A stretch of 62,551 nt of DNA, the filler included. It is 11 parts of 11 records of this genome, joined end to end, with 100 filler letters (N's around TTAATTAATTAA, not from the genome) between each part and the next. Parts side by side here need not be neighbours in the genome. Positions count along the whole stretch, not along the records: positions 1 to 5,338 come from SRR7504441_11953; positions 5,439 to 8,954 come from SRR7504441_11954; positions 9,055 to 16,167 come from SRR7504441_11961; positions 16,268 to 19,409 come from SRR7504441_11963; positions 19,510 to 29,018 come from SRR7504441_11965; positions 29,119 to 34,805 come from SRR7504441_11967; positions 34,906 to 39,365 come from SRR7504441_11981; positions 39,466 to 45,586 come from SRR7504441_11982; 3 more parts are not named here. One strand, written 5' to 3'. Shown here piece by piece: positions 1,622 through 57,037 of this stretch. A program made the position numbers and the translations under genes. Each line of letters starts with the position of its first letter. Within the stretch, counting starts at the first letter, position 1. The notes under the pieces are model-generated. The model ran no database searches. It saw only the letters and a program-made list of their open reading frames with translations, and was not told the DNA's origin.

Positions 1622-4600
1622 ATGGCCACCAAGGTGGATGCGGTGCAAGGTGACCGGTTAACCGACCTCGAGAACCGTCTCGAGGCGGTCAAGGACTACC
1701 AGCGGCAGATCGCATCCGCGATGCGCGCGCAGGACTACGGCCGGGCGGCCGAGCTCAAGAAGGAGATGACTTTGGCGGCTGAAGGACACGCCGGCGCTTC
1801 GTCGGCCGCTCGGGCGGGGCAGCCGGGCCAGGCAGTTGAGGATCGGCGCAGCACGGAGCGGCCACCGGCGTCGGAGGCGCTGCGGCGAGACTTGGATCGG
1901 TCCTGGGAGTAGTAGCGGCCGGCCGTTGATTGGCTGGGGCAGCGTGGCCCGCGGGATGAGCCAGCGGACGCAGAGCAACCTGGACACGACCATGGCCGGG
2001 GCCCGGCTGGAGGTGGTCACCCCGGAGGTGTGGGCCGGGACCGGGCCCGCCGAGCTGGGTCAGGGCCAGAGACTGCCCGCGCACTACCTCCAGCCGGGGA
2101 GCAGCACGGTGCACTGAGTGCTTGTGCCGCCCGATTGGTTGCAGGTGGGACGTCATCCGAGCTGCGACCTAACGCTTGCGGACCCGAGCAAGCAGCTCTC
2201 CCGGCGCCATCTCAAGGCGAGCCCCGGCCCGGCCGGCGCGAGCCGCTGCCAGATTGAGTTTGAAGCTGAAGGCCGTCCGACGCTTTGGGTACGCGTGACA
2301 TGCTGCCGGGTGCGGGACCGGGGGCAGGTAACCGACACGAGCGGTAACGGGTCTTGCCTGGACGGGAAGGAGCTGGAGTATAACACGAGGACCCGAGTGG
2401 AGCACGGAGGGGTTGTGCAGATTCCGGGGACCGACGCCGAGCGGAAGGGCGTGTGGAAGATCAGCTTTCTGGTGCAAGAGCAGGACACCGAACTTGACCA
2501 GTGGACAGTCTTCAACGAGCTCGACATGCGCGACGAGGCCGCTAATAGTATTATTACCACTACTGAGCGGGAGGCCAGGCCGATAAGATGATGTTGGCCA
2601 AGTTTCTCACGGAATTCGTCGCTGCGCTACAAGGACATAGGCGGCCGCCGGCGCTAGAGCGAGTGGGCTCTCTCGGGAGCCCGATAGCGAACAGAAAGGT
2701 GCCCGCCGGGCCGGCTCCGTGAGGCTCGTCAGGGCTTGTCAGAGGCCGAGACTCGTCAAGTATTCAGGATATGCTGCGACTCCCACGCCGGGGTGGGTCG
2801 ATGCTGATAATAATAATAGTGCAATGGGGGTCGGATTGAGGGAGCTGTTAGGTCAATAAGGAGCTGCTGGATACGGGCCTGGTGCTGAATCTCTGCCGCA
2901 AAGGCTCAAAACTGCTTCGGCGGCTCCCGACTGCGGTGCTGCCCGCCTGAGGCGGGCTCTGACCGGTGGCTAGATCGATCTAGACCCCCCTGACAGGCAA
3001 CGGCCGATCAAGGCGGGCTGCCGTTAGCATGCTAAATATAAACAGCGCCCCCCCAGGTGGTCGGCGATTTACATGGCAACATGCACGACCTTGTCGAGAT
3101 TCTACGGCTGTGTGAGTGGCCGAGCCCCGACAACAGGCTGCCGCACCGCCCGGCAACAGCTGATCGGCTGAGCCAGGTACGTGTTCGTTGGCGACTACGT
3201 GGACCGCGGCCCGTCCAGTCTAGAGGTCGTGATTGCACTGCTGGCGCTCTTGCTGGGTTGTGGCCCAGATGCGGTCACTCTGCTCCGCGGTGCCCGCTGC
3301 CTACCGGATTCGGGATCACCGGTGTGACAGGAAACCACGAGGATCCTGCAATCAACGGAGTCTACGGCTTCACAAAGGAAGTGCACAGCCGATTCGGAGA
3401 CGAGCGTGCCGCCGTGCTCAGATCCGTCAACGAGGCGACTGCTCGAGCTGGCCGGACTCACCCACAGCGCAGGTCTTCAGAGCGATGCCGCTGTGTGCGC
3501 GAGCCGGGCGCGCTGTTGTGATCTTTCACGGCGGGCCTCCTCGCCCGGTGGGCTGTGCGGGCTCGATCTGGCCTGAGCCCTGTGCCAGATGACTCCAGAC
3601 AAGCTCGAGGTTGTCGACTGGGAAAGACTAAACTCGATCGATCGCTTCTCGCTTAGCACGGTGTCGCGCACCAGTAGCGACGACGGCGTGCTAGCTCAGG
3701 ACATGCTGTGGTCAGACCCCCGCCCGGTGCCGCCCTCGTGGTAGTCGCGTGCTTACTGCGGGCAGCTGCGGAGCAAGGACTGGGGCCGGAAAGCGACGTG
3801 GACGCCGGCTGAGCCGGTACCCTTCTGGGACCCGGCAGCGCTGCTCGAGGCCAATTCACGTGGTGGCGGGTATGCAGATTGCTCTAGCGGGGGGCTGTGA
3901 AGGGAGGTAGGTTTATTTACTCGCCGGAGGTGGCCCTGTACTGGATGCATCTGCTCGAGGTCGGGTGCATAGCCCGGGGGCACGAGCTGTGCCAGCGAGG
4001 CTTTAGCTTCATGCCAGCCGGCGAGAGCACCGGTGCCGGGCGAGGGCGGGAGAGGCCTAGCCGGTGCCAGGCGTGTGGACGGTCTTCTCTGCCACCAATT
4101 ACCGCAAGAAGGGCACCAAGAACTCTGGGGCTGTGCTTGTGTTCGACAACAATCACGGTGCGCCAGCTCCCGGGCAAGAGTCGAGCCGTGACTAGGCACA
4201 CCCGACACGATCGTGTTTGAAAGCAAGGAGGTGGTCTCCTGCGAGACGGTTTGCGCGTAGCGTCCTCTGGGGGCGAGTGGTCGCGGGCCAGATGCAGAGC
4301 GCGAACCGGGAGGCTCTGGCGGCTGCAATTGCGAGCTGCAGCCAGCAGCTGAGCACCAAACTCGATCAACTAGCTGACAATGGGCTGGTCGACCTTGCCG
4401 ACTGGGGCCCCGTGATGGACTTGGTGCTCGGATTCACCCCAGGTGCCGGCAGAGTGCTCATCCTGCCAACCATTGGGTGCAGGAGCGGTCCATTGGGTCT
4501 CTCTAAGGGAGCAGATCGCGCCGGGTAATCAGCACCGGCGTCGAGCTCGGATCTGAAGCGCTGTGGCAGGGTGCATGGCCACGCCGAATCTGATGGATTA

Positions 4601-4970
4601 CCGCAAGTTTCTCGAGCTTTACCCGCAGCAGCTGCACCAAGCTGCTCCCGCCGACGCCGGCCCCAGGGCGGCTGTAGGGCTGGAGGACCTCTTTGGGTTC
4701 CTCGATGCTGATTCTAGTGGCGATATCTCCCGGGGCGAGTGGCTGCAAGGGTGCCGGTTGGGGCGGAGCGTCCGATCGATGTCCAGGTGTGCTTGGATGA
4801 ACTCGAGGCTGCCCGAGGAAGAGAGGGTGGACCCGGGGAAGCTATTTGAGATTCTGGATACCGATGCGAGCGGTGCGGGCCGGGCCGAGCCTAGCGGAGC
4901 GAGGGCAGGGTCGATCAATTTGGACGAGCTTGTGAGCACGTTCCGGCCTCCAGTCGAGAGGGGCGAGTAG
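1622..4970 (+). CDS. PPEF/RdgC-type Ser/Thr phosphatase with N-terminal UVR motif and FHA domain and C-terminal EF-hands (about 20 short introns)
   Basis: Hand splicing gives a UVR-like [39 protein letters not shown] motifs [41 protein letters not shown], and EF loops [12 protein letters not shown] and DTDASG|SINLDE. Some internal exon boundaries are uncertain. Confidence 0.85.
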
Positions 4971-5338
4971 CCACTGCCCATCGAGCCTTTGTCGGGCCTT
5001 TTGTTAATGTTATTATACAAGTAGTTAAACTCCTTATCCATGGTACATATCGTGTCCGGGAGCTCACTTATACCGTAGAATAAATAAATGATGACTTGTT
5101 TGCGTTGTTTGCCTTTTGTGAATCTTGTGTGAGAGTACCTATTCCTGCGGCTCAACCGAGGACCGTTGCGCGATGGAGGGCTGAGCGTTTGGGATGTGGC
5201 CTACGCGTAGAGAACGGGAGGAGTTGCGGCGACAGGGGGAGGGTCGGCGGGGGAGGGACGAGAATGGAACGCCCGAGAGGGCGACGGCCACGCCCGAGAG
5301 GGCGAACGTCACGGCGGGGGAGAAGCGTGCGGGGGGGG

Positions 5339-5438
5339 NNNNNNNNNNNNNNNNNNNNNNNNNNNNNNNNNNNNNNNNNNNNTTAATTAATTAANNNNNN
5401 NNNNNNNNNNNNNNNNNNNNNNNNNNNNNNNNNNNNNN
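5339..5438. other. Artificial contig spacer (N44-TTAATTAATTAA-N44). Identical spacers at 8955-9054, 16168-16267, 19410-19509, 29019-29118, 34806-34905, 39366-39465, 45587-45686, 49925-50024, 57130-57229
   Basis: Identical 100-nt blocks with a six-frame stop linker; genes are truncated at these points. Confidence 0.99.
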
Positions 5439-6584: not shown

Positions 6585-6714
6585 CGTCGTCGGTCCCCGG
6601 TCGTCGGCCGCGGGGTGAGATTCAGGCCAACCAACGGACTCAAACGTCATCGCGATCGAGGGTGCGGGATCGTAAGCGGTCAGGCGCGCACGCTGCAGTA
6701 GGAGGGTCAGCAGC

Positions 6715-8814: not shown

Positions 8815-9054
8815 GGGGCTGGTGGGCACACTGTGCTGCACGCATTCAAGCTGTCGTCGTTATGACGAAGCATGCCAGGATTAGGGTGGCAAGGGGCTGC
8901 AATGACTACAACCTAGGGATCAGTGCCAATTGCCATTATTTTGGGCTATTTTTTNNNNNNNNNNNNNNNNNNNNNNNNNNNNNNNNNNNNNNNNNNNNTT
9001 AATTAATTAANNNNNNNNNNNNNNNNNNNNNNNNNNNNNNNNNNNNNNNNNNNN

Positions 9055-9321: not shown

Positions 9322-12300
9322 ATGTTCGCAGGGCTATTCGACGAGGAGGAAGGCGGCGAGGGCTGCTGGGACTATTCGACGGGCGGGCCGGCATACTTCC
9401 GGCCGACGCCGATCCCGGCCATCCCGGCCGCCCCGGACCCGCCGCGTGGTCCGGCCGGGTTCTCGGGGCTTGTGAACCTGGGGGCGACCTGCTACCTCAA
9501 CTCGCTGCTCCAGACGCTGTACATGACCCCAGAGCTCCGGCGCGGCCTGTTCGAGCTGCCTGACCAGCAGGTGGGGCCCCCGGGTGGCATCCTCTCCAGC
9601 GTGCGCAGGCCACAGCAGCCCAGGCAGCCGCTGACGGCCGGTGGCAGGCTGTTCGCGATGCTGGCCCGGGCCGACCGGCGGGCGGTGAGCCCGGAAGTGC
9701 TGACACAGGCGTTCGGCTGGGACGAGGGCCAGGTGCCAGGGCCTGGGTGTGTGAAGGGGGATTGGGCGGGAGGTCCGTATCCAACAAGACGCCCATGAGA
9801 TGCTCAGCCTGCTGATGGAGCAGATCGAGCTACAAGTGCCTCGCCCGCTCGATCGGCGGCGAGCGTTGCCGGGCAGACCGATGGGAGTGAGATGTCGGGG
9901 CTGCTGCCAAAACTGTACCGCGGCCGGCTGCAGTACGCCACTGAGTGAGCCGTCTGGGTTAGCAGTGTGAGGGTCGCCAGGTGCCTGAACTGCGGAAATA
10001 CCAAGAAACGAGAGGCAGATGAGTGGGGGCTCCCCGCGGTGATCGGGCCGCACCAGAGCCTGCAGGCCTGCCTGGAGGCGCTATTCTCCCGCGACGGCGA
10101 AGTGCTGGACGATCAGAACAAATATGAGTGCGAAAAGTGTGGCCAGCGGGTGGTCGGCAGGATAACGGTGGGCGCCTCGGCCAGCCCGTCAGTCACGCTG
10201 GGGACAGCTGACCCCGACAGTGCTCCCGCCGATGCTCTGGATCAATCTCAAGCGGTTCTCGTATAAGGTGACCAACGGGAACTTTGAAAGGATGAAACTA
10301 ACAGATAAGTTCGAGTTCAGCGAGCATTTGGAGCTTGACTGGCTGCTCCCTGGCGCACGGTATACTCTCGCGGCCGTGGTGATACACAGCGGCTCGGCTG
10401 GCGGCGGGCACTACCATGCGCTGATTAAGGACCAGCAGGACGAGGGCAACTGGCAGCTAGGTGCCACTGGGCTGATGGCAGCCAACGGAATCGGCCGCAG
10501 GCGAAGGCGCCCCTGCAGGGCAGCCGCCGGGGTGGTTTGACTATGACGACGACACCGTCACTCCGGTTCCTGCCAGCAAGCTCAAGGCGCAGTTCGAGGG
10601 GTGTGATCGAGCTGTATTTGCCACGATTGACCGCTGTCACAGAGCGTCGTCTGCATACATGTTGCTCTATCGTCGGTTGGATCCACAGCCGACCGCCGAC
10701 CCAGCACTCCCGCCGGCTAGCGAGATGGAGCTAGTCGCAGCGTCCAACAAGGAGCTCGAGGCCGCCCGAGAGGAGTACGAGCGAGAGAGCCACAAGATGC
10801 ATCTGACTGTGTTCTCTGAGTCCCAGTTTGAGCTGATCGACGGGCTGCTCCGATGTGGCGACCAGATTGAGCCGGCGGCACAGATACAAGTGGACGATCG
10901 GTTGGTTGTCGGCCGGGCGTCTGGCGATGGGCGGGCCAGGGCTGGTTGGTCTGAATTGATGAAGGCGATCGCAGAGGTTCAGCTCGAGACAGAAACGGGG
11001 GCAGTGCATGTGCTCGAAACGCTCAACGAGGTGCGACTAAGTTGCCGCGTCTCATCCGGGGGCAGTTGCCGTGGCCGAGTCGGCTGCTTGAGCCAGCAGG
11101 CGAGGCTTTGGGTGAGATGGCCGGCCTCGAGAATGGCTGTTCGCTGCTCTGCTGCAGCCAACCGTGCCCAGGTCATACTTTAGGGTTAGCGTTAGGGTTA
11201 GAAACCGTGCAAACACTGATGATTGTAACAGCCGGCAAGCCAATCAAGCTGACGCTAGTGCTGCTGCGTCGCGACAAGGAAGGCCGGATTGATGCAACGG
11301 AGGAGGAGCACCTTGTGGCTAGCACCCGCCTGCTGAGCGAGCTCAGTCCTGCCGTCGTCCACCCGGTATGCAATTAGCGCGGCGGCCAGGGCTGACCGGG
11401 CCGCAGCTCGCATTCGCTGACCCACCCGATGAGCCTCTTGAGCTAAGCCTGTCGCTGGCGGCCAACCAGCTGGATGACGGCTGCACAATCAGCCTGGAAG
11501 AGGCGGCGGAGCCTGGGGAACAGCCGCTAGCAGTCTGCCGACATCTGCTCGGGGAGACAATGATGGAGCTCACGGTCAAGAGCGAGCTTGGCAGCGGGCG
11601 GCTGATGCTTGCACGTGGCCTGGGCGTGGCGGAGCTCAAGAACCAGCTGTGGCAGAGGTTGGAGTGGCCAGTTGCACTGGGCGAGTGCCGGTTGCGCAAA
11701 GCGTCAGTGTCTGAAGACGGCGAATGGACAGTCGGTGGGCTGTTGGATGAGGCAGCGGACGAGAGCCTGCGCTCAGTGGAGCATATGCATCTGATTGGTG
11801 AGCTGGGCAGGCCGCCGGCTGACGGAGAGATATGCGTTGGCTGGGGGGTCGCTCAAGGTGGTGCGAGTGGGTTTGTGCTGGTCGATCCTAGCAGGACCAC
11901 GCTGGCAGGGCTAAAGCAGAAGCTGGTACAGGCGGCAGCGCTTCAGGTTGGGTTGGGTGAGCTGCGGCTGCGCGAGTGCGACGGGCTAGATTCACCAGGC
12001 GAGCTGTATAAGGACGAAACTAAGCTGGTCTGCCAGTGCAGTCTGCAGCAGGACGACTGGGTGATACTGGAGCACGGCAAGCCACCCGCTCGTGGACAAA
12101 TCCGGCTGCAGCTGAGTTGGCACACTGACCTCCTGCGTGTGCACGGGCCTGTCTCTGCAAATGTATCGGACTCTCTGCTCGATCTCAAACGAGGTGTGGC
12201 TGAGCAGTACGCTGATCAGCTGGAGGTGGAGGCGGATCCGAGCCGGATTCGGCTTCACAAGCTGCAACGGCGCAAGTGCGGCCCAATCCTTAAACCGGAT

Positions 12301-13400: not shown

Positions 13401-16147
13401 TCATAATTGACGGCGCGCTGCCCTCTGCCGTGCCAGGTCCTCCACCACCTCCCCGTGTGTGTGCTCGAATGGATTGAATCCTGCTCGCAGGCTCGCCGGG
13501 GTGCACCCGAGCACTCCCGGTGGTTGCATCAGCAGCTGGCGAGAGCTCACAAACCCCGTAGGTGCGGGGCCCAGCCGTGGCTGAGCCTGCCCAAGCGTGG
13601 CCGGGCCCTGCAGACTTCGGCGCAGCTCGGCCGAGGTCTGATTCAAGACAGGCTGTGGCGTGGTTGGCTGGTCACCCCGTCTAAGGATGGAGGCCAGCTT
13701 GCCTCTATCCTCGGTCTCGAGCTCCAGAATAGATGCCAGCTTGCTCACCCCGGCCGATGCCACCTGCATTCGGTCCTTTTCTGGGGTCTGTTGGTCGTGT
13801 TGGGTCTCGAGCTGTTGCTTGAGCTCCAGCAGATTGGCCAGCCGGCCGCTCTGCTGCTGAGCCAGTTCGAACTCGAGCACAGAGATCCGGCTTGTCAACT
13901 CAGTCGCCTGCAACCCATCAATCCACGATCCAACCGCCAGGCACCCTGCACTTCTCTGCTCGGAGTTGCTCGAGCTCATTGAGCACTGCTGGAGGCACAG
14001 CATGCGCCGGCCACATCTGGGCGCCGGGCGCCTGCACATTTGCAGTGAGGCGGTTGGCTAGGCTTTATATGAGCATGCTAGAAGGAATCACCTGCAGCTG
14101 GGGCTTCTCTCGCTCAGCGACCAGCTCGGCCTGCAGCTGAGTGACCTGGGCCTTCAGGTCTTGGCTCTGTGCCAGCACCTGCGCCAGCCATTAGAGCCGG
14201 CGCAGCCCCGACACTCGCCTGCTCCAGCGACTCTACTTGCCTGGCAAGCTCCGACACTTGCTCGGCCTCCACCTCCAGCGCCGCCTCCCGACCCACGCTC
14301 TGCTGCAGCTGGCCTCTCAGCTCGTCGCGCTCGGCAACAAGCTCGGCCTCCTTGCTCCGCCATTCCGCCATCAGCTGCTCCGCCTCCTCCACCCGCGCTG
14401 AGAGCGGCCCCAGCTGGGCGGTGGCTGAGCGCTCAATCTGAAGCTGCTCCTTTACAGTGTCGAGCTCCACCTGGAGCGACTGGACAGCCGCTTGGCTCTG
14501 GCTCAACTCGGCGTTCAACTCTTTTACCAGCTGTCCGCTTGTCTCAGCTTGCTCGAGCAGCGGCGGCAGCTGCCCCGAAGCTTCCTCGAGCTCGCGCTGC
14601 AGCCTATCTGTCCGACTGGTTAGCTGCTCGACCGCAGCCTTGAGCACGCCCTCCCGTCTTGCTGATGCGTCTGTCTCCTGCCGCAGCCGCGCTAGCTCCT
14701 CCTGGCTGCTGGCCAGTCGCTGCTCGGCCTGCTCGGCCCGCAACTCAGCTGCCTGGGTCTCGTCCGAAGTGTCCTTCTCCATTGCGGCCACTCTGGCAGC
14801 CAGCGGCCCTATCTGGTTTGAAGTGGCCTGCAGCGCAGCCTCTCTCTGCTGGCTCAGCTCGAGATCGTGCTGCAAGGCCTTGACTCGCTCCTCGAGCGGA
14901 TTCGGGTCTTGGACCTTGAGCTCCAGCCGGTCCAGCTGCTCGTGCAGCGAGTCCACAACCATCTGCTCCACCTTGAGCGCGGCCGCCTCCGCCTCCTCGT
15001 CGCCCTCGAGCCCCAGCAGCTGCTGCTCCACCGCCATCGCCGCGTGCACCAAATCTGGCTCCTGTGGCACCGGTCTATCCGCGAGCAGCTCAGCGGTGGC
15101 CTGGTTGGTGGCGTCCAGCTCAGTCTGCAAGAGCTCACACCTAGCTTGGAGAGGCTGCAGCTGGCTGACCGCCTGGAGCAGGGTGGCCTCCCTCTGCTCG
15201 CTCAACTCCCTGTCCGCCTCCATACGCGCCAGCCTCGTCCGCGTGTGCTCCAGCTCCTGCACCAGCCCTGCCTCGCGCACCGCCACCTCCGCCACCATAT
15301 TTTCCGCTAGCTCCGTCTTCCCCGCCAGGGGCTCCAGCCGCTCCACGAGTCCACCCAGCGACCGCTCTCTCTCCCGCGCCGCAGCCAGATCGGCCGCCAT
15401 CTGAGACTGCAGCCCAAGCATCGTATCGGCCTGCGCTACCGCCCGATCTGCCGCAAGCAGTTTCTGCTGTGCCTGAGAAAGCTCAGAGCGCAACCCCGAC
15501 GCCTCCTGCTCCACCGCAGCGCACCGACCCCCCAGCGTCTCCAAGGCGCCCTCGGCCTGCTGGGCGCGCACGTGCAGCAACTCGGCCGCCTGACGCTTCT
15601 CCTCCAGCGCCCGCTCCGCCCCGGCCAGCCGCCCCTCCAGATCAGCCCGCTCAACCCGCCCCTGCTCGGCAATCGCCTCCGCCGCCGCCGTCCGCTCGCG
15701 CTGCTCGGCCAGCGCGGCGCTGCCCGCCTTGCGCTGGGCCACGGCCGTCTCCAGCGCTGACTCGGCTACCTGCCGCCGCCGGGCCTCGGCGACCACCTCG
15801 GCTTCCACCCGGGCCTTTTCGGCGGCTTGCAAGTCTTCCTGCCGGTAGTCGCTCTCCAGGTGCTGCTTGGTGAGCCCTGGGGCGGGCTGGCTGGACATGT
15901 CGTGCAGCGGGCTCCGCCACCGCCGGGTGAGGTCCCGATCCAGCCGGCCCTCCTTGTCTGCGTCGATCGCGTCGACCACCGAGTCCGCGGCGCTGGCCGG
16001 GGGCGGCTGGTCCTCGCTCCCGCCCAGCCGACTCCGGAGCCTCCCAGCCACCTGGTCCGGCTTCCAGCGCGAGTAGTTATCTAGTATCCCCATCCTCGCC
16101 ACAGTGCCATCCTCATCGCCAAATTTTGTTTTGAGTTGATTTCTCAT
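13401..16147 (-). CDS. Long coiled-coil protein of unknown function (ORFs 14114-16147 and 13401-14039, probably joined by short introns)
   Basis: E/Q/A/L-rich heptad-type sequence over about 600 aa; no catalytic motif. Confidence 0.7.
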
Positions 16148-16276
16148 GCACCATGCTCTCTGATTGANNNNNNNNNNNNNNNNNNNNNNNNNNNNNNNNN
16201 NNNNNNNNNNNTTAATTAATTAANNNNNNNNNNNNNNNNNNNNNNNNNNNNNNNNNNNNNNNNNNNNAACGAGATC

Positions 16277-19257: not shown

Positions 19258-19538
19258 TCACGAGCGGCTCCTTCGTCAGGCTTCGTGGCAGCAACCATTT
19301 TGAATTAAGGCATTGCAAGTACTTAAGTCTTTTCGGTATTTTCAGGATTAGAGAAATCAATTCGTTTATTAAGTAAACTCTAATACCCTTCGCCCTTTAG
19401 GCGTTGAAGNNNNNNNNNNNNNNNNNNNNNNNNNNNNNNNNNNNNNNNNNNNNTTAATTAATTAANNNNNNNNNNNNNNNNNNNNNNNNNNNNNNNNNNN
19501 NNNNNNNNNAAGGAAACAGGGCGTCCATCACTCCGGCG

Positions 19539-22500
19539 ATGCTGTGGGCAGGCGGCTCGTCGTCGGGCGACGAGGAGCTGCAGCTGCACCGGGCCGTGGC
19601 CGGCTCGGAGGACGACCCGATGGCGGTGCTCCTCCACAACCGGTCCCAGCTGGTCCGCCAGCACTGCGGCCCGTCTGTTGGGCTGCTCGGCGAAAGCTGC
19701 TGCGAGCTCCCGGGCTGGGTGGACGTCCAGGGCGAGAACTACCCCGCGGCCATATCCGACCACCCGCCCGCCACCAGCTCACTTGGGGCGATCCAACAGT
19801 GAGTAGTAGTGTGGCGCGTTGCGAGCCCCTGGCGGGCAGGGCTGTGCTCGAGGAATGCCGGTGCAGGATCACAGGCGAGCTCATGACTGAGCCCGTGACC
19901 GCCCCTGACGGGCACACGTACGAGCGGTCGGCGATTGTCCAGTGGTTGGCCCAGGAGGGGGTCTCGCCGTTCACGAAGCAGCCAATGTCGGCGGATGAGT
20001 TGCATCCGAATAGGAATATCGCAAACCAGCTGGACGCGCTCAGGTGCCACCTGGCCGCAGGAGTATATATGTGGCTCAGTTCGGGCCGCAGGGGTCTGGA
20101 TCCGACGCGCGCCGGTTCAGTCGTGAATCAGAAGGCCGCGGAATCGATAGCCGATGAGTGCGAGATGTCCTACGCTGATTTCCTGTGGTACGGTGGTGCC
20201 AAAGGCGAAGGGGACCCAAATGGGCTCCACCGCCCTCTGCAGCACTGGCTGCCGGACGAGGCCGCCACCAGGTGCCAGAACGAGAGGTGCGCCCAAGCGT
20301 TTGGCGGTTACGCACGCCGACATCACTGCCGATGGTGCGGCCAAGTGTTTTGCTACCGGTGCTGCCAGGAGTGGGTACACATCCCGGTCGATCAGCTAAG
20401 AGAGGCCCCAGTCGAGCCACAACGGAGCTTTCTGCAGGCGCCGCAGCCCCTGGCAACGGCTTGCGTAGCCATCCCGACAGGTGGTGGCTTCAGAGATCAC
20501 AGCCAGGGTGTCTTCTGGCAGATACTTGGCACTCAGCAGGCCACAGCGCGTATGCATCAAATGTGCCGAGCACTGGACTCGTAGAAACTGCTCAGAAGCT
20601 ACCCGACGACGGTGTGCCTCCGGCTGTTGGGTGGGCTAGCTTGGGACAGGTGGGAGCAGTTAGAACTGCGGCTGTCTGACATGGAGATATCTGGGCTATG
20701 GCGGCTTTACAGGGAGAGTCCAGATGAGCTGGAGCGGACTGCTGCTGGTGGGCTCATCTCGCGTATGGCTAGTGCGCAGTATGGGTGGCACAAGCCCGGT
20801 CTGGCTGAGTATAGTAGCAAAAGCACGGTACAGCGGTTTCTGTGGCGTAATCGGGGAATATTCGGGCAAGTGTCTAGTTATCTACTCGCGTTGGTGCGGA
20901 GTGTCACCTGGGGCGGACAAAGCTCGGCACAGGACAGAGCAGAGCAAGAGGAGCTGCTCCAGATCCTCAGTGATAGTGCTGCGGCCTATGTGCATCGGGA
21001 CCATGCTGCGAGCCAGCGATGCCGGGCGGCTGGCAGCGGTCGACACCGTTCAAACCTGCCAGAGTCAGTCTACGAGCAAATTTGTGTCTCGCGGAACGCG
21101 TATACGTGCATCCAGCCCGAGGACGCCATGCGGCTGCTGCTGATGGAGATTCGGAATGAGAGACTTACTCAGATCGCGTGCTCTGTGCTCATACAACATG
21201 CCCGCGAGGCCCCACAGTGGCTCGAGTGCTGGGTCCCGCTGCTCGTAGCGCTCTGGAAGAAAGTGTCCTACTCGCCCGAGGTGTGTAACCAGCTCGAGGC
21301 GTTCTTCGAGAATCTGGCCGACTTGAAGCACGATGTTGTGCTCCACGATTTGTATCACAGTTTGAAGCTCGAGCATGAATGCGCTGCAAGCAAGGAAGAC
21401 AGCATGCGGGCGGTACGGGCCCTCACCCGGATCACCCGGACCATGCCTGAAGCTGTCTACCAAAAGCTGATCCTAGGCGACGCGTTCATCGAGTTTGTCC
21501 ATAAGCAGGTCGGGTACGCAAGTGAGGCTGGTGACACTGCCTGCCACAGCCCCAGGCCGGGCCGGAGCTGCGCGCTCCGCCGCAAGTTTTCTGCTGTGTT
21601 CGAGCAAATGCAACCGCGCGGCAAGTGGCGGGGAGTGCTCCCCGACAAGGTTTCAAAGCAACTCGTCCACGAGACTGCACACCGCGTGACTCAGATGGGT
21701 GGAGATCCTTCAGAGGCTGGCGAGGTCGGCGCACTGCTCGCTGAAGCAGGCCAGCAATCGGGCTGGCTACAGCCGCAGCCAGGTCTGAAGGAAAGCAAGC
21801 AGGTCGCCCAAATCGCAGCTTCGACGGCGGCCATCTCTTCGTGGCTGTCTGCGCATTGGATCTGGGAGGGTAAGCAGTTTCCTGTGCCCACAGATCCACG
21901 CCAGGAGTGCACTGGACTGGACAATGCCGAGCCGGTGCTGCCGTGAGGGCCAGGGCAGGCGTTAGGTCAGGGCCACAGGTGTCTGTCAAGCTGGAGGGGG
22001 CCTCAAGGCCAACTGTGATCCCACTTAGGTGCACTGACAATGGTCAATCACCAGGTGCCCCTTTTTGCCTGCCGGCAGGGCCTCATGATGACTGCACAGA
22101 GGATTCCAAGCGTGTGCTCAAGGTCTTGTACAAAATAGGGGACGACTTAAGGGTAGACCAAGCCGTCAGCTGTCTGGTCAGGCTGATGGAGCTCACCCTG
22201 GCCGAAGAGCTGGTGCCCTGGCTCAAAGAACAGTCCCAAAGCAAGGACCCCACCAGCCGCGAGCTGGCTCAGCTGGACCTGCACACCATTGAAGCGCTCT
22301 TCAGCGGGCCTGGCATAGGCCGATACCGTGTCTGCCCGACTGGCCAGTCTTCCGGGTTTATTCAGCTGGTATCCGGCGAGACACTGTGAGCGCGACCGGT
22401 GTTCCGTAATGTGCTGATGCCGGCTCGGCAGGTACAATATTGCACGCGACTACACTGATCTCCAAGACGACTCGCTGCCAGCCCGGGCCCGGTGTGGCAC

Positions 22501-29018: not shown

Positions 29019-29308
29019 NNNNNNNNNNNNNNNNNNNNNNNNNNNNNNNNNNNNNNNNNNNNTTAATTAATTAANNNNNNNNNNNNNNNNNNNNNNNNNN
29101 NNNNNNNNNNNNNNNNNNTTCTCGGTCCCGTGGGCAGCCCGGCAGTTGCCCCCGGGCGGCGGTGGCGGCGCCGACCGAAATGCTTGCGCCGTGGCGGCCA
29201 GGAGCAATAGCATCTGCGATCTGGCCATCGTCTCAGATCGGCTTGGATTTTCTGAGTGGGCCGCATCAGCTGTCTGGAGGTGTCAGCTGGGCACGGTCGG
29301 GTGCGGCG

Positions 29309-34592: not shown

Positions 34593-35031
34593 GCCTAGAT
34601 AGCACACAATTCAACACTGGGTGGCACTGATCGATACTCGTATCGCTGATTATCGCGCCGCGTACTCGTACGAGAGAGGTACAATACGTGTACGAGCTCG
34701 AGTATGAGTAGAGTATGAGCATGACGATCGATGAGCATAACGATCGTTCCTGCGGTGTTACAGAAGGGCTCGAGCGCTCGAGCAGCGGGACCTGCTTGAG
34801 GTGGANNNNNNNNNNNNNNNNNNNNNNNNNNNNNNNNNNNNNNNNNNNNTTAATTAATTAANNNNNNNNNNNNNNNNNNNNNNNNNNNNNNNNNNNNNNN
34901 NNNNNTGGGCCGCCTCTCCACCGCCCTGACCCTACCCTTAGCTATTGTGCTGAGCTGGGCACCGATGACATAGTTACGTCTAAGTTTCCTTGAAACTTGT
35001 GATAATTCAATAGTTGGTCTTTATGATTTAT

Positions 35032-38000
35032 TTATGAGGAGAACCTAAAGTTTCTGATTGAGTGTGCTCCTATTTGCATCTGTCGATGGCGGCGGATTAA
35101 CTTCTTCTTTGCTTGATCCAATGCGTGACTACCGATTAAGATGTCAAAGCGGTCCGCCTTTAAACCCCCCATCCCCGCAATGCGCTTGAAAAGCACCTGA
35201 ATATCAGCCCTCAGCACTAAACTTGGTGTCATTCACTACCACTACTCGAGCGCACAGGAGAGCTTTGCGCCACAGCCAAGAAGCATTGAATACTCTTGGG
35301 CTGCCGAACGTGTATAGTTTCATTTTGACCTGATGAGCAGAAATCATGAGGCACCAGCGGGGTGAGAACTCGCCTGATTCATGAGTTCAGAGTCTGACTG
35401 CATTCGGAGATGTGCAGCACAAAGCGTGGCCAAAGCTCCACCGAGTGAGTGCCCGACTAGGACCACCTGATGCCGGTCAACGTGATCAATACGCTTAAGG
35501 ATGCCTCAAGAGCTGTGTCTCTGCCATTATTTTGTACGCATTTTTCGAGGGCAGCGGTGACTCGCTCCTTGAGCTCTTCGAAAGCTTGAGCAAAGCCCCT
35601 GTGGGTATAGCATTCTTTGTCCTGGAACCCTTTTGAGCGAAGCTTTTCAAGTGTCTTCTCAGAAAGGTGAAAGGGCACCTGACCAGAGAGCTCTCAGTCC
35701 GTCACGAGGGTCAGGAGGCTGGACCTGGACAGAATCAAGGTCGGTAGCTACATTCGTCATGGAAGCTGTTCCTCGAAATGCGATGAACACACGCTCGATT
35801 TGATCGGGATTCCCAGCAACGGTCTGTTTGAGTATGGTAGCATGTGAATCGGATGATCTCTCATCATCCTCGTCTGTAATATGGATTGATTCGAGCAAGT
35901 GTGTCCGCGGTGCCCTCTGCAAGCGGCTCCTAGAGTCACGGCCATCAAATGTAGCATTCAAGCCATCAGGATCGAAGTCCTCAGAATCCAGCTGGTCGGT
36001 GTATTGTTTGTGTGTGAGCAAATCAAGATAGGCGTTCATGCAGACCGTGATAGATAACCTACAGCCACAAGTTAGCTCGGTCACGGATTAGTTACCTTGC
36101 AAGGACAATGTCAAAGAGCACGGCCTCCGAGCATCTCTCTTTAATGCTGATCGAGTCGTCGAGCAAAGTTTGACTTTTGTAGTCGATGGTGCTCGCTGGA
36201 TCTCTGTTTCTGAATCTGAAGATGCTATGTCTCTGAGCTGCATGTGAACTGAAGGTTGAATACGGGAGTGTCTTGATTGTGATGAGCCCACTCATACGTG
36301 CTTGGGTCGGTGCGAGAGTGAACAATAGGGTGATCGCATACAGAAAATACATCACAAGTCGCTGCAGCGTGAATGTTGTATCCCAACCTAGACCTGTGCT
36401 GCCACTCAAGACGAAGCCGAAATCCACTTCTTGCTGCCAAGCAAAGATCAGCGTTGCAACAGCAAAAGATGTGCAAGGGCAAGTCTTGGGGTGCGCCCCA
36501 CCTTGTAAATTGAGGTGACGCCCTCGGCAAGGACAAGTATGATGTTGGAAACCACAGTGTAGAGGAGAAAGACCGTTGTGGTCAGAAAGGACCATCGGAA
36601 ACTCACCTAAATCACAGGTTAGTTCTTTTGCGATGCCAAGCCTTGACCTGCATCTGCCGCTCACAGTTGTAGTCTACCTGTTTGTCCACGAAGCGAGCGG
36701 ACACAAGAGCCGTGCGGAAGTACTCGACGATCCAAAGAAGTGCCAAACACGTCCCAGCGCCAGTGCCCACGACGTGGAGAGAGATTGAGTCTGGTGAGGC
36801 CCAGTATGTTGGGTCGTTGTACGAGGAGTCGACCCCTATGACGTACACTGAAACTTTGCTGCCAATCTGCAGTTGAATCGATTAGTCACCAAGAAATTCG
36901 AGGAGCGTACATTGAGCAGTGCCAGGAACCTTCGCACGTAAAGTGTGCCTGACATGAAGATATAACTAGATGTGCCTGACGTGTCTGAGATTTGGCCGTT
37001 GGAATAATCCACAAGAGCGCAACCAGAATATCTTAGTCCCACCTGCCGTGGTGTGAGGTCAGATGGCGATTCCAGTTCACTGACCTCAGCACAGATGTTT
37101 AGTATGGAAAGGATCATCGCCGCCACTGGCATGCTTTGAGACTCGAATGGATCGTCGTACACTTTCGCCACCAGTACTATGAACTCAGTGATTCCAAGGA
37201 CGCAGAAAAAAAATACAATTCGCAGAAGGTTGGCCTGCAATCACACAGTTGTCAACTCGTGTTTAAGAGAGAGCTGTAGCATACTTCCTCGTGATTGAAG
37301 AGGCTGTGCGCCCCGTGAACAGCTTCACCGTGCTGTCCTCGTGAAACCACTCCGCACTATACGTATACACCTCCACGTACACCTCGCGCACCCTGAAGGC
37401 AGTGAGCCGGCATCGTGGTGGCTGTGAGACACACCTATAGCGGGACGACAACGGACAACCAGTGTCCGGGGTCCCTGGGCACGAATACGTACAAACCATC
37501 CATGACGAGTGGTCCAGAGAACCTGATGGTATGAAGTCCATTGTGGCCCAATATTGGTTTTCAATCTTTTGCACTTGGTCCGACGACAGCACTGTTATAA
37601 CAACCCCGTCCTGTCCGAGGTACCCACCAGCCCATGTCTGCCCAAAGCCCCTTCAGTCCAGCCACCGCGCTGGATCGGGCTATAGTCACCAGCCCTGCAA
37701 ACACCACAGCTGCTAGAGCAAGACCCAGCCAGCAAGCCTCGATCCACTGCAAGACACCGTCCGACCTACCGACCCTTGTCAGACCAGCCGTTAGCCAGCA
37801 GCACAGCTGAAACAGCCGAATCGATGAAGTCCCCCGGAGTATCTGCGCCCTGTCCGTTTCCGTTGCCACACCGGCTACGCCCGCTGTTGCACCGCAGGCT
37901 GGGGAAGTTCTGCAGCTTTTGATTCCGGTACTCTCGCCTGCTGCCCTCCTCCTGCATCGTTGCACTGCCCTTCATTAGGTCTGGTAGCTCTTGTTTGTCC

Positions 38001-39307: not shown

Positions 39308-39465
39308 AGTAGCCGATACGTGTCCACATAGCGGCGGGGCGTATCAGCACGCTGACAAACGGGCCNNNNNNNNNNNNNNNNNNNNNNNNNNNNNNNNNNN
39401 NNNNNNNNNTTAATTAATTAANNNNNNNNNNNNNNNNNNNNNNNNNNNNNNNNNNNNNNNNNNNN

Positions 39466-41997
<2,532 letters not shown>

Positions 41998-42022: not shown

Positions 42023-43146
42023 ATGGGCTGCACCGGGGCCAAGGGGGCGCGCGGGCTTGGGACGGCGGCTGCCAATGGCGACGTGTGCGGGGTGCGGGCG
42101 CAGCTGGAGACGCCCGGTTTCGAAGATCGCCCGGGGAATAAAGAAGGTGCACCGCTTCTGCAGCCGCAGCTGACTGTTGCGCAGAACTCAACACGGCGCT
42201 TCTGCGGGCGGTGGACAACAACCAGCTCCCAGTGGTCCAGCTGCTGGTGCACAAGTTCGGTGTGCCGCGCTCCTGCCGCGCCCGGTCAGCCCGGCTAGGT
42301 GCACACATCGTTAACAAGAACAGCCGCCGGCCCGACCTTGGGGCGCACAATGCGATCACGATGGCCGCCGCGTCGCCGCACGTCACGGAGCCGCTGCTCC
42401 AGTACTTGCTGCGAGACTGCGGCGGCGACGCCAGCGCCTACGAGCCTGTCAACCGGCGGAGCGCGTTACACCTGGCGTGTGTGCCGGAGCTTACAGTGAG
42501 TTTCTGGCCAGCCCGCGGGCAGCCGGAGGGCAGCCTTTCAAAGTTCGACTGCTGGCAGCATTCGGCGCGGATAAAGAGGCCAAAGATAAGGCTCGCAACC
42601 AGCTGAGGCGGTGCCTGAGGGGCCGGGCAGGACGGTCGGACTGCACTGGAGGCGATAAAGGAGTTTTATGCGGTGAGGATAGATCTGGACCCTCGGGCAC
42701 AGCAACGGCAGCGGCAGAAGCTCGAGCAAATGGTCGACCAGTACCACGCTGCAATCCACGCCTCGCCGGAGGCCACCGAGGCGGTGTTCCTAGACGCAGT
42801 GCAGCCGCAGCTGACGGCATTTGAGGAAGCGCACGGGCACGCCGCGCCGTCGGGCTGCTCCGTGGAATGCGGCCTGTGTGGGACGCCGTTCAGTCCCCGA
42901 TCGCGGGATGGGAAGATGGTGCACAAGCTGTGTGTAGGCCACGGGGGCACTGGGTTTCGAGCGCTCCGGGCCCAGTTTGTGAGAGAGTTTCTGCATGAGC
43001 CTTCGGGAGAGATCACGTCGGTGGTGTGTGAGCAGATGCGCCGGCAACCGAATTTGGATGCATGGGCCGAATTCCATCAGCGTAATGCAACGCTTAGGAT
43101 GATTTGTGAAACCTGCGTGAAGTATGCCGTAGATGAAGCAACTTGA
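42023..43146 (+). CDS. Ankyrin-repeat protein with an MGC N-terminus and a C-terminal CxxC...CxxC (HNH-like) domain
   Basis: Spliced repeats TAAANGD, TALLRAVDNNQLPVVQLLV, RRSALHLAC; C-terminal CGLCG...VGH...WAEFHQRNATLRMICETC. Confidence 0.65.
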
Positions 43147-43594: not shown

Positions 43595-44601
43595 CTATGG
43601 CGTCGACACGGACCCGCGCAGCGACTCTCCGGTTGTAGGATCGTAGCCCTTAGCCACGCTGTCAGCCTGGCCAGTCTTGACCTGAAGCACCGGTCAGCGA
43701 TTTGATCAGGGCACCGGGGCGCCTCGAAGTCGTTCAGCTGGTACTTGCTCATGTCCACGTCTTCCACCCTACCGAGGTGCTTGAACATGAACCGCTCGCC
43801 CTGACCGGCCCAACTCAACAACCGGCAGCTAATCGGGCTACCGATGGGCCGACCAGAGGCAGCCAGCCGTGCCCGGAGGTGCAGCGGATGAAGATAGCCT
43901 TGGGTCCTTGGCAGATGGCATCGGCCACCACGACCATTGGAGCGTGCGGGCCCTTGCCATCCTTGATCTGTGACCCCTTCAGCCACCGCCAGCCCGCGAG
44001 CGCGCCTTCTTGGTGAAGTCCGGCACCTCCCTGTAGCCCACGCCGGGGGAGGCCTGGATGCACTGGAACACCCGGGTCCCGAACTCGTATCCTTGCGGGA
44101 TCAACAGTTCTGGCATCACCAGCTGGGCGCACCGACGGAGCCTGCCGCCTGATGAGCCAAGCCCCGCCGGCCGGCCGACCGGTTGTTCTCTTCGCCCAGC
44201 ATCCCGTTCTCCTGCCGCAAGGCCTTGAGCTCGGCCTCCAGCCTGGCCCCGGCCTCCAGCTCGCCCTGGGGCCTCCCGCACCGGAAGTTCTCCTCCCTCA
44301 GCTGCAGCTCCCGGCGGTGGTCGTACGAGAACTCTCCGTACGACGGGTGCGAAGGCTCCTTGCCGTAGTTGTACGCCTCAGCTGCCGCAAACCGGCCGGA
44401 GCCCGAAAGGTACGGGTGGACCGGTACGCCGCCGGCGCCCATGTGGACTGGGGTCGACCATGCCGGGGTTTCGCGGGGGTACTCTCCGAAGGAGCGGAGC
44501 GGCGGGTGGTGCACGCGGTTGCCGCCGTGGTGGTACCAGTCCGGCGGGAGTTGGTTGGAGAAGTTCTCCTCGGGTTTAGTGGAGTTGTCAGCTTCAGCCA
44601 T
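43595..44601 (-). CDS. Uncharacterised protein: coiled-coil plus the ~90-aa domain shared with 32837-34592
   Basis: Spliced FGTRVFQCIQASPGVGYREVPDFTKK|IKDGKGPHAPMVVVADAICQGPKAIFIRCTSGHGWLPLVGPS|GERFMFKHLG. The 3' end is approximate. Confidence 0.68.
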
Positions 44602-45586: not shown

Positions 45587-45686
45587 NNNNNNNNNNNNNN
45601 NNNNNNNNNNNNNNNNNNNNNNNNNNNNNNTTAATTAATTAANNNNNNNNNNNNNNNNNNNNNNNNNNNNNNNNNNNNNNNNNNNN

Positions 45687-49759: not shown

Positions 49760-50545
49760 TGAAAAAAAATCACTTGAACGGCCTCGGATTGAGTGACCGA
49801 CCGCAAGCTGTTGACCCAATTATCAGTACCGACAAGGGGCTAGCGCACCCGTGCAGCATCGTTCTCCAGCCCGTTCCGAGTTTCTTTGGGGCATGCCAGG
49901 GTCGCAATCGGGGCGACATCCATTNNNNNNNNNNNNNNNNNNNNNNNNNNNNNNNNNNNNNNNNNNNNTTAATTAATTAANNNNNNNNNNNNNNNNNNNN
50001 NNNNNNNNNNNNNNNNNNNNNNNNGTACTCGTACAATCATGGCTAGGTGCGTATCACGTGGTTGAATGTGTGGTGGGGCCAGCGTGGGCCTGTTCACTGT
50101 GACCAGTTGGCGGGTCGTCGTCGCTGCGCGCAGCTCCGGCTGGCCGTACGGCCGCCTTGTGCTGGCGCTGCGACTGTCGGTCGTCGTGGCCGTCCGCGCG
50201 TTTGCGCGGCCGGTCCGTGGGGTTTTTGATGTCCGTGTCCGCTTCCGGCTGTGTACTTGGTACAACAAATACCTACAAATAATATGCACGAAGGCCAAAG
50301 AAGCCTAATTTGGGCGTCGCAACAGCGAATATGTCCGTTGAATACCGCAATTTCCGGCCTTGGCTTTTGAAGAAAAGCGGGTGAAGACCATGAAAGAGAT
50401 GTTTGAAATGCCGGAGTTGCAAGCTTGGCTGACGGAGGGGGGTGAAAATTATGTGCTGCCACCAAATCAGCCATTTGATGCCTCCAACAAATGCCATGCC
50501 TAATGAGTTGATTGAGTTCACTCTTCACTCGTAGGGGTTGCATGA

Positions 50546-50589: not shown

Positions 50590-50685
50590 GACTCGAATAA
50601 ATTTAGATTGTTATAGGAGTTGCTTTTAGTCTGTTAGTAACATAAAAATTAACCGCCTCAGTACTGAACCTAACCGGGGACAGAT

Positions 50686-50817: not shown

Positions 50818-50884
50818 GACACTACACTGACTGCAGGTATCATGGATCATGAATCAGATGTGGTAAAGAACAACGGTGCCATCC

Positions 50885-51679: not shown

Positions 51680-51801
51680 CCGTCGCCGCTGCTGCCTACG
51701 TCGCCGTCGAATTTAACGGAACAATATGCGACCTTGTGAGTGAGTCATCGGTCTTTGGAAGCGAGTAACGGAGGCTCCGCTCGTGACGTGTCAATCTCAA
51801 C

Positions 51802-52821: not shown

Positions 52822-52946
52822 ATATGTAGTGAATATGTGCTCCTATAATGAATATGTATACATAACAATCGTCCAAAGTTGCAAGCATGCATAATTATGC
52901 ATTAGATCCGGGCGTTAGAACCTGCTACTTGTATACTACTTGTGAA

Positions 52947-55199: not shown

Positions 55200-55265
55200 T
55201 CTCGCCTCGCCGAGCCGGAGAGGCACAACGCCACAAACCAGCACCCAGCTGCAGTGACCGTCCAC

Positions 55266-57037
55266 ATGGAGTGGTGGCTGAAAGGAGTCGTCACCGCGCA
55301 GCTGGTGGTAGCTGGGCTGGTTTACCGGGCGCTGTCCCGGTACGACGCCAAGATTCGCCCACCGCCCTTAGAGCCGCCCCGCTCGCCCGACCCCGGCACC
55401 CCGATCCTGCAGCAGCTGCCCCCACAATCCAACCCGTTCATCAACAAAACCTGGCGGCTCTCTGCGTTCGAGCGGCTCAAGATGGCTCTGATGGCGGTCA
55501 CCATGTTCCCGGTGCGGATGGTCGTCTTCCTTGTCGCGCTGGTCGGCTGCAATCTCACTTGCCGGCTGATCCTGCTCGGAACCGTCAGGGGCTCGCCGCT
55601 CTCCCCGGCCCGCCGCAAGCTCGTCGACTTGGTTCTCCCAACCTTCGCCCGTGTTGTGATGCTCTGCGCCGGGTATTGGCGCCTACCTGTCAAGGGCCGC
55701 CGCGCGCCGCCGTCCGAGGCCCCGATTCTGGTTTGCAGCCACAGTTCGGTGGTGGACTTCTTCGCGGTGTGCGCCGTGTACGGCCGGTGCCGTGTGGTCG
55801 CCGAGCGGTCCAACGTCGCCAACCCGGTGCTGGGTCCGCTGGCCGAGTGCCTCGAGCCAATCACGCTCGATCGGCGGTCAGCGGAGTCGAGGGACCTGGC
55901 AAAGCAGCGGATACAGCAGTGCGCTGAGGACACCTTCGCTGGTCGAGACCAGACTCAGATGTGCATCTTTCCTGAGGGCACCACCTCCGGAGCCGAGTTC
56001 CTGATCGGGTTCAAACCGGGCGCCTTCGTGCCCGGGCTGCCGGTTCAGGGTATGTGTCTCAAGTACAAATGGGGCTCGCTTGACCCGTCGTGGTGCTTCT
56101 CGGGGCCTGACGCGCCGCTCCTCTTCTTCCGTATGTTCTGCCAGGCACGCCCAGCACCGCAATGCACTGTTCAAGCGGGGTGCAGGTGAGCAATTCCATC
56201 GAGGTTCTGTACACTGATGTGCACAAGCCTTGCGAACAGGAGAAGCGGGAGCCCAAGCTGTTTGCATCGTGAGCCACCCGCAGCAAGGCCGTCTGACCGT
56301 TGGGGGGGCAGTAACATGCGCGACCGGATGGCTCGAGCCGGTGGGATGCAGACTACTGGGCACTCTGGCGACGACGTGGTGCTGCAAACAATTGCTTTCA
56401 AGCACGGGCTGCCTCCGGAGGTCGGGGCGATTGGATCCCAGGACATCATGGACCGGTTCCGCATTCACCGGACAACCATCAAGGAGCACTTGGACAGGTT
56501 CGCGCTGGCTGACACCGACAAATCGGGCACTTGCTCGTTCAGTGAGCTGGTCAGTGCGTCCGAGAGTGTAACAGGTGAGCTCCACCCGGCCCAGAAGAAG
56601 CGGATGCGCGTGCTATTCGACTTGCTCGACGCTGACGCCTCCGGTGAGATCGATTTCCGGCAGTATTTACTCGGGCTCGGTCTTGTGAATGAGACGACGC
56701 TGGCTGGGGTGGCGCAGATGGCCTTCACGTTGCTCGACATGGATGGCGATGGTCTGATTGACTTCAAAGATCTGTGCCACATGATCGGCTGGCAGGAAGA
56801 AAACTCAGCGGTGAGCCCCTCCGGCTGGGCTTGTCAAGTGATCGAGGGGTGCAGGGAGAGGCCACGCCGCGGTCGGATGCGCTGGTGCAGCAATGGGGCT
56901 CGCGGAGCAAGCAGTACGACGAGAGCCAGTTTGTGGCGTTGTGTGCAGCCAATCCCGAGATGATTCAAGGACTTCAGACTAAGTTCTTTGAGGAGATGCA
57001 GAGGAAGCCGGACGGCGAGCAGTACTGGCCGAGCTGA
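55266..57037 (+). CDS. Lysophosphatidylcholine acyltransferase (LPCAT1/2-like) with EF-hands
   Basis: HSSVVD (HxxxxD), IFPEGTT, FKPGAFVPGLPVQ; EF loops DTDKSG, DADASGEID, DMDGDG. Confidence 0.9.

Follow-up and report, generated by a model that had tools for sequence, protein, structure and literature searches.

Introns that begin with GC instead of the usual GT and end with AG are rare in the five model species surveyed in PMC1557818, at 0.37-0.86%. Across 61 species their share is about 1.3%, the three GC-richest genomes of that survey having 39.6% (Aureococcus anophagefferens), 22.2% (Micromonas pusilla) and 7.7% (Chlorella sp.) (PMC3033335). In Emiliania huxleyi about 60% of the donors are GC, as checked by reverse-transcription PCR (PMC4028052), and the GC content of splice sites tracks that of the genome (PMC7072748). 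The usual donor consensus is MAG/GTRAGT, in which the slash marks the border between exon and intron (PMC5032977), and U2-type GC-AG introns make up for the mismatch to the U1 small nuclear RNA (snRNA) at intron position +2 by pairing better at other positions (PMC1557818, PMC3167603). The subject of the present analysis is a stretch of 62,551 bases of eukaryotic DNA (the window), in which an earlier note had listed 14 GC-AG introns of 36-44 nucleotides (nt) and suggested that a relaxed spliceosome may be behind them. The observation was partly confirmed, in that most of it holds and roughly a quarter of the listed segments are doubtful; the interpretation found partial support, and the segments are probably ordinary U2-type GC-AG introns of an intron-dense, GC-rich (about 60%) microbial eukaryote.

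Placement of the GC-AG introns

All 14 segments were found to begin with GC, to end with AG, to follow an exonic AG and to measure 36-44 nt (Table 1). The reading frame is shifted by 11 of them; among the three in-frame segments a stop occurs inside 31624-31659 and none inside 2217-2252 or 9609-9647. The coding score within the segments, calculated in the continuing frame, falls below zero in 11 of the 14 and reaches at most 0.026 per nt, the reference values being 0.068 +/- 0.047 per nt for trusted exon windows (n = 111, 5% of them below 0) and -0.029 +/- 0.046 per nt for 20 homology-defined GT introns. Alternative GT donors preceded by the G that is invariant at the last exon position (-1) in this genome were found for 43968-44005 only. 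Five segments (3137-3176, 3435-3472, 35330-35373, 35467-35504 and 41345-41381) appear firm as GC-AG introns, fixed by homology; five more (2538-2578, 9609-9647, 31624-31659, 56145-56185 and 41475-41512) are probable, mainly from frame, stops and coding score, and the GC-AG status of 2217-2252, 3013-3056, 20438-20480 and 43968-44005 is doubtful. That the segments are removed from the RNA is what we infer from these features of the sequence.

Table 1. Introns and other features of the window, with positions counted along the whole stretch; the last column gives the assessment as GC-AG intron
Feature	Position	Strand	Length (nt)	Location and remarks	Assessment
Claimed GC-AG intron	2217-2252	+	36	FHA part of phosphatase gene	doubtful
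GC-AG intron	2538-2578	+	41	phosphatase gene	probable
Alternative single GT-AG intron	2936-3056	+	121	G/GTGC...CAG/G, phase 0; swallows micro-exon and 3013-3056	
Possible micro-exon	2997-3012	+	16	residues directly before GDxHG motif; non-GT introns on both sides	
Claimed GC-AG intron	3013-3056	+	44	directly before GDxHG motif; needs 16-nt micro-exon	doubtful
GC-AG intron	3137-3176	+	40	phase 2, between GDxHG and GDxVDRG motifs	firm
GC-AG intron	3435-3472	+	38	between GNHE exon and HGG exon	firm (frame, motif)
GC-AG intron	9609-9647	+	39	ubiquitin hydrolase (UCH) gene	probable
New candidate GC-AG intron	14179-14218	-	40	coiled-coil gene; donor CAG/GCGAGT; shifts frame	
Claimed GC-AG intron	20438-20480	+	43	after FYVE exon	doubtful
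GC-AG intron	31624-31659	+	36	phosphatidylserine decarboxylase gene	probable
GC-AG intron	35330-35373	-	44	class-3 lipase gene	firm
GC-AG intron	35467-35504	-	38	directly before GHSLGG serine motif of class-3 lipase	firm
GC-AG intron	41345-41381	-	37	TAG acceptor; organellar-type isoleucyl-tRNA synthetase gene	firm
GC-AG intron	41475-41512	-	38	isoleucyl-tRNA synthetase gene	probable
New candidate GC-AG intron	42591-42630	+	40	in ankyrin repeat	
New candidate GC-AG intron	43682-43722	-	41	CTGAC motif; CAG/GT acceptor; shifts frame	
Claimed GC-AG intron	43968-44005	-	38	gene without family match	doubtful
GC-AG intron	56145-56185	+	41	acyltransferase-EF-hand gene; shifts frame	probable
Control gene Vps35	59086-62179	-		14 introns, 37-84 nt, all GT-AG	
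Linkers	5339-5438, 8955-9054, 16168-16267, 19410-19509, 29019-29118			44 N-TTAATTAATTAA-44 N	
Linkers	34806-34905, 39366-39465, 45587-45686, 49925-50024, 57130-57229			44 N-TTAATTAATTAA-44 N	

The positions of the two lipase introns follow from the Pfam Lipase_3 profile, which three exons match in order (profile positions 25-61, 65-90 and 94-110); the middle exon, 31 residues long, matches positions 65-90 with its residues 1-26, while the match to 94-110 begins at residue 2 of the next exon. Two stops arise if 35467-35504 is kept, while 35330-35373 contains an in-frame stop and its sole GT alternative removes a conserved block. The isoleucyl-tRNA synthetase (IleRS) gene was analysed with a protein-to-genome aligner of our own, which is blind to splice dinucleotides and scores each boundary pair near each gap. 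With all ten IleRS homologues the alignment is interrupted by an intron at 41345-41381, where the only recognised dinucleotide pair is GC-AG, with a score of 462 against a best score of 483, a difference of one residue; a GT-AG solution was sought within +/-15 nt and none was found. At 41475-41512 an intron is placed by nine of the ten homologues, in a poorly conserved region, and GC-AG scores 84 against a best score of 91. The rival there is a ca/GT donor 3 nt downstream, giving a 35-nt GT-AG intron, over which the homologue spacing favours the putative GC donor.

The phosphatase gene (about 1900-4967, plus strand) encodes a PPP catalytic domain with an FHA part on its N-terminal and EF-hands on its C-terminal side, is rdgC/PPEF-like in the Protein Data Bank (PDB) hits, and has its coding region cut into about 20 very short exons. 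The placement of 3137-3176 relies on PP2A chain 4iyp_C, to which the preceding exon aligns up to residue 76, the split codon AG/G being residue 77 and the next exon starting from 78; the GT intron that follows, 3290-3330, is equally exact against the same chain. In the downstream frame a stop lies two codons ahead of the acceptor of 3137-3176, and the GT alternatives carry T or A at -1 and cost 7-9 residues. The exon before 3435-3472 aligns to rdgC chain 8jfy_D 211-246, through its final residue, and the exon after it carries the putative HGG motif, the frame of which requires a +2 shift, i.e. the removal of 38 nt. This segment has a coding score of -0.108 per nt, and C precedes the GT of its alternative donors; PDB and Pfam searches with the HGG exon on its own were without a hit, and the later phosphatase exons gave nothing useful in the same searches. 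If 2538-2578 is kept, the frame shifts into two stops within 90 nt, and the downstream coding score is -1.8, compared with 4.7 after splicing; here the sole GT alternatives carry A at -1, and the ab initio gene finder described below calls the intron too.

The remaining two segments of this gene are less clear. The coding score of 2217-2252 (-0.036 per nt) is intron-like, and the FHA loop is longer than that of Rad53 FHA1 with or without the segment; the PDB FHA alignments give no decision, and 2217-2252 could be plain coding sequence. A search of the FHA exon against 1.8 billion representatives yielded a repeat protein and otherwise weak hits, with no close orthologue among them, and no homologue scored when a frame with two phosphatase exons was the query. 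As for 3013-3056, the micro-exon that it needs reproduces the P-I-K-V-V-G-D spacing of 4iyp_C positions 49-55, and the intron upstream of the micro-exon would, as the sequence reads, be without a GT donor in the right phase; the exon before it gave no match in a PDB search. The alternative is the single 121-nt GT-AG intron 2936-3056, with which a proline would likewise stand five residues ahead of GD. In our reading the micro-exon model suits the phosphatase family better. In total, the gene holds three GC introns that are firm or probable, two or three uncertain ones and 13 GT introns, partly from hand curation; the earlier count of 5 GC introns in about 20 is fair only with all five accepted.

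TAG acceptors, in place of the near-invariant CAG, were seen at 3870-3910 and 4158-4195 (both plus strand) and at 41345-41381 (minus strand). The conserved phosphatase block RG.G stays in frame only if the TAG acceptor of 3870-3910 is used.

Introns in other genes and new candidates

In the UCH gene the exon upstream of 9609-9647 is covered by the UCH profile, and the segment itself has a coding score of -0.012 per nt and a CTGAC branch-like motif and is called by the ab initio finder. The exon after 31624-31659 matches positions 156-179 of the PS_Dcarbxylase profile; TTGAC and CTGAC motifs lie inside this segment, and GT alternatives amount to zero. Splicing of 56145-56185 gives a downstream coding score of 2.8, against -11.0 on retention, with -0.094 per nt inside the segment and T at -1 in the GT alternatives. 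For 20438-20480 the coding score gives no decision: the downstream score is -1.2 spliced versus 0.8 retained, stops appear in neither case and the finder makes no call. A rival exists for 43968-44005, namely an AG/GT donor 21 nt upstream; joined to the CAG acceptor of the segment, it yields a canonical intron of 59 nt that leaves the frame as it is with the GC donor.

Three further candidates come from outside the earlier list and stand up to closer examination. The donor of 14179-14218 is close to the consensus, and the spliced coding scores around this segment are 10.2 upstream and 8.7 downstream, against -10.8 and a stop on retention. The exon before 42591-42630 aligns to designed ankyrin repeats through its final residue (...GAD..A.DK), which coincides with the end of a repeat, and the downstream score is 7.7 spliced versus -4.9 retained; the ankyrin pieces gave nothing useful in PDB and Pfam searches, and the exon after 42630 gave repeat-protein hits only. 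A G/GT alternative was found for neither of these two. The third candidate, 43682-43722, scores 1.6 spliced versus -7.4 retained downstream and has two cg/GT alternatives.

Splice signals of GC and GT introns

The yardstick for ordinary splice sites was a set of 29 GT introns made up of the Vps35 introns (61731-61776 and 62074-62128 left out), seven IleRS introns and ten phosphatase introns, one of the latter set by PDB numbering and nine by hand curation. Vps35, the only gene with transcript-like relatives and one that carries no GC intron, served as control gene (5-8 homologues, with P0001, which lies on a 2,335-nt contig, 84% identical); the GT-AG pair had the top score in all 14 of its introns, and GC-AG never came within 48 points. 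On the exon side the GT introns have G at -1 in 29 of 29 and A at -2 in 11 of 29; on the intron side 20 of the 29 have G at +3, 18 have C at +4 and 16 have G at +5. The acceptor is CAG in 27 of 29, and G starts the next exon in 22 of 29. Of the 20 GT introns defined by homology, 12 have a branch-like motif YTNAB at a distance of 6-28 nt from the acceptor, compared with 26% of all CAG/G sites.

The 14 GC segments resemble these introns in most respects. Median length is 38 nt (GT introns, 40 nt), 13 of the 14 end in CAG, the next exon begins with G in 11 of 14, YTNAB is present in 7 of 14 and a purine occupies +3 in 11 of 14, by which the statement that the introns have no intronic consensus is seen to be overstated. 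GC-richness and the missing polypyrimidine tract are not peculiar to them but shared by the GT introns (70% GC and a pyrimidine fraction ahead of the acceptor of 0.47, as against 68% and 0.45 in the GC introns). The GC donors match the GCG preference of +3 to +5 less well than the GT donors, and +4 to +6 are weak in both classes. The rule that every donor follows an exonic AG stands for all 14 segments (A at -2 in 14/14 versus 11/29 GT donors, Fisher p = 6e-5), a figure that is biased if AG/GC was what the earlier note searched for.

Agreement with MAG/GTRAGT amounts to 5.14 of 9 positions in GC donors and 5.45 in GT donors; with +2 left out, the values are 5.14 and 4.45 of 8 (p = 0.07). The exon-side match is 2.43 in GC donors versus 1.86 in GT donors, and the intron side is not strengthened.

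The next exon starts with GT after 12 of the 29 GT and 9 of the 14 GC introns, a difference that is not significant. Many introns, for example within 59361-62128 on the minus strand, are thus flanked by AG/GT at both ends, and their boundaries can slide by 1-4 nt without a change of the messenger RNA.

Frequency of GC donors

For an estimate of frequency, an ab initio finder was used that combines a 3-periodic Markov coding model with donor-neutral signals, A at -2 being slightly rewarded. Of 20 known introns it recovered 16; its GT calls numbered 68, and it missed the short-exon phosphatase gene entirely; an earlier version without splice signals had missed most known introns. A histogram of donor-acceptor pair distances had no power, GT itself reaching only z = 1.0-2.3. 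Only the strict-context comparison (AG/XY donor, CAG acceptor, 34-46 nt) was used, because the unfiltered finder could not separate GC from decoy dinucleotides; in strict context there were 9 GC calls versus 0-4 (mean 1.8) for 14 decoys. Over the 62 kilobases (kb) we count some 12-16 GC introns as credible, beside about 85 with GT, from which a GC-AG share of roughly 10-15% is estimated. A share far above 1%, as the earlier note had supposed, is thereby supported.

Two long Vps35 introns on the minus strand, 60934-61017 (84 nt) and 61275-61356 (82 nt), were miscalled as short internal GC-AG introns, and gene finders with a length bias could likewise inflate GC-AG counts in this genome.

Gene finders that accept GT only would put about every third or fourth gene of this genome out of frame, since several genes, among them those of the phosphatase, the lipase, the isoleucyl-tRNA synthetase and the ubiquitin hydrolase, need at least one GC donor each. 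AG/GC donors should therefore be allowed when this assembly or a related one is annotated.

Interpretation of the GC donors

The introns of the window are nearly all about 35-46 nt long, and we consider the ordinary U2-type reading probable. The 5' splice site of this genome is short, with an invariant G at -1, then GT and a weak GCG at +3 to +5; the 3' site is CAG/G(T), with a CTRAY-like branch motif common and no pyrimidine tract. A change from T to C at +2 may be tolerated where the exon ends in AG, since the extra pair at -2 would replace the lost pair at +2 and leave the total complementarity to U1 unchanged, and GC-biased mutation pressure might then raise such donors to about a tenth of all introns genome-wide. 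Several observations weigh against this. Without filtering, 18 GC calls stand against 4-18 calls for each of the 14 decoy dinucleotides, decoy CC also having 18, and several of the finder's GC calls are wrong, sitting inside long GT introns of Vps35; this gene, the sole one sampled independently of the claim, has 0 GC introns in 14. Workable non-GC readings exist for four of the 14 segments (2217, 3013, 20438 and 43968), and 9609 neither shifts the frame nor contains a stop. The AG rule may partly reflect how the earlier note searched, and also the finder's own bonus for A at -2. Finally, matches to GCG at +3 to +5 are lower in GC than in GT donors (1.07 versus 1.86, p = 0.02), which is not predicted by a simple drift from T to C.

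Some of these points lend weight to the view that the segments are mostly miscalled, the true GT donors lying elsewhere or the segments being retained coding sequence, so that GC-AG use would be unremarkable. To the decoy counts and the Vps35 result may be added the AG/GT donor upstream of 43968-44005, the GT donor 3 nt from 41475-41512, the 121-nt GT-AG intron that can absorb 3013-3056 and the stop-free frames of 2217 and 9609. Against this, the five homology-fixed junctions have no GT solution, GC exceeds the decoy maximum of 4 in strict context with its 9 calls, the coding score is negative in 11 of 14 segments and three extra candidates arose independently of the earlier list; general miscalling is accordingly held to be improbable. 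The relaxed or altered spliceosome of the earlier note, picking tiny introns by exon-side pairing and length with no need of intronic donor signals, would agree with the exonic AG in 14 of 14, with the poorer +3 to +5 match (p = 0.02), with the narrow range of 36-44 nt and perhaps with the GT that starts the next exon (9 of 14 versus 12 of 29, not significant). The GT introns, however, are equally narrow in length and equally weak in intronic signals, the GC introns keep a purine at +3 (11 of 14), a CAG acceptor and a branch-like motif, and ordinary spliceosomes strengthen GC donors on the exon side too (PMC1557818, PMC3167603). A special spliceosome is not needed, because the total match to the U1 consensus is alike in both classes, as expected from the known compensation, and we regard it as quite unlikely.

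For a single intron, 35467-35504, a U12-type (minor spliceosome) identity in place of the U2 type has to be weighed. It begins with GCATCCTT, which resembles the donor of U12-type introns when +2 is C, a class defined by GCATCC at +1 to +6 (PMC1557818), and TTGAC lies about 11 nt ahead of its 3' end. The branch-site match is confined to this TTGAC core and the intron is just 38 nt long, RYATCCTT has 4 hits in the window where 4.28 are expected by chance, and none of the 29 GT introns starts with GTATCC, so a U12-type assignment seems unlikely. In the other 13 segments neither a 5' site RTATCCTY or GCATCC nor a branch site TCCTTRAY 10-15 nt from the 3' end was found. Errors of a poor draft, by T-to-C misassembly or in broken genes, might be suspected from the high fragmentation of the assembly (contigs of 3-10 kb); such errors would not recur at +2 of 36-44 nt segments that are preceded by AG, end in CAG/G and lie at homology-defined junctions, and this explanation is hardly credible. 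It is tempting to speculate on a further reading, rather unlikely in our judgement, in which the 5' site is read almost wholly through the AG at the exon end and the first intron base, +2 being free to drift and the +3 to +5 preference lost by GC donors; recognition would then be anchored in the exon, perhaps led by U5/U6, and possibly stand beside a few U12-like GC-AG introns.

Two known classes of unusual introns were tried and rejected. Introner elements found no support in the pairwise local scores of 43 introns, which equal those of shuffled controls (mean 6.48 versus 6.08, maximum 15 versus 16), and the non-conventional introns of euglenids and Amoebophrya do not fit borders that are GC-AG, folding z-scores of 0.02 (GC) and -0.05 (GT) and the absence of terminal hairpins.

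Gene content and assembly

The window consists of 11 contigs of about 3-10 kb each and is not a single locus, the joints being ten identical linkers. The span 2217-56185 given for the GC-AG introns therefore takes in ten unrelated contigs, and gene order and distances across linkers are meaningless because the contigs are unrelated. GC content of the window is about 0.6. The genes are eukaryotic and include Vps35, a bacterial-type isoleucyl-tRNA synthetase, the PPP phosphatase with FHA and EF-hand parts, a class-3 lipase and UCH, as well as a PI3/PI4-kinase, a DEAD-box protein, a mitochondrial carrier and a P5C reductase (P5CR), among others. A search of the whole window with Rfam at gathering threshold gave no RNA genes and hence no snRNA. 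The Atlas gives Cercozoa as the commonest group for Vps35, no more than a hint, since P5CR gave Chordata or Chlorophyta instead; metagenome scans with the acyltransferase exon and with the decarboxylase exon found no relative in either case.

Comparison with known systems

The earlier note had named dinoflagellates for heavy GC use, which is too narrow a frame, as GC-rich protists show it too (PMC3033335, PMC4028052). Like dinoflagellates, the present genome has AG/G at donor and acceptor, i.e. a repeated boundary triplet, and GC donors are common; unlike them, with their GC or GA donors, it uses GT in the large majority of its introns, which are about 40 nt long (PMC5032977). GA donors had two strict-context calls, within the decoy range, and no spliced leader or other dinoflagellate mark was seen in the window. 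G after the AG acceptor, a trait of dinoflagellate type, is present here and is also part of the general CAG/G consensus. The rhizarian Lemnamoeba is a poor match, with 99.5% GT-AG introns and introns of 82 nt (PMC13746701), and so is Amoebophrya (PMC7789003).

Animal and plant GC sites offer the likeness of a compensated +2 mismatch, here by A at -2 in all 14 segments (PMC1557818, PMC3167603). Model species strengthen exonic and intronic positions, the latter towards GCAAGT, whereas here only the exon side is strengthened. The resemblance to U12-type GC-AG introns concerns the start of the single intron 35467-35504 (PMC1557818). The genome thus gives an example of +2 mismatch compensation on the exon side only, and no pointer to a new splicing mechanism is seen in it.

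The closest likeness is to the GC-rich protists cited above: the genome is GC-rich, GC is the only common non-GT donor, the AG acceptor is kept, GT and GC introns are of equal length and the share lies far above the value of about 1% in model organisms. The differences are the tiny introns (median about 40 nt), the intron-dense genes and the lower share, estimated at about 10-15%. Micromonas and Aureococcus are, moreover, rich in introners (PMC7789003), whereas the introns here are without sequence families. Raised GC-AG use in GC-rich protists is already published; to these protists the present window adds an intron-dense genome, and what distinguishes it is the combination of tiny introns with high intron density.

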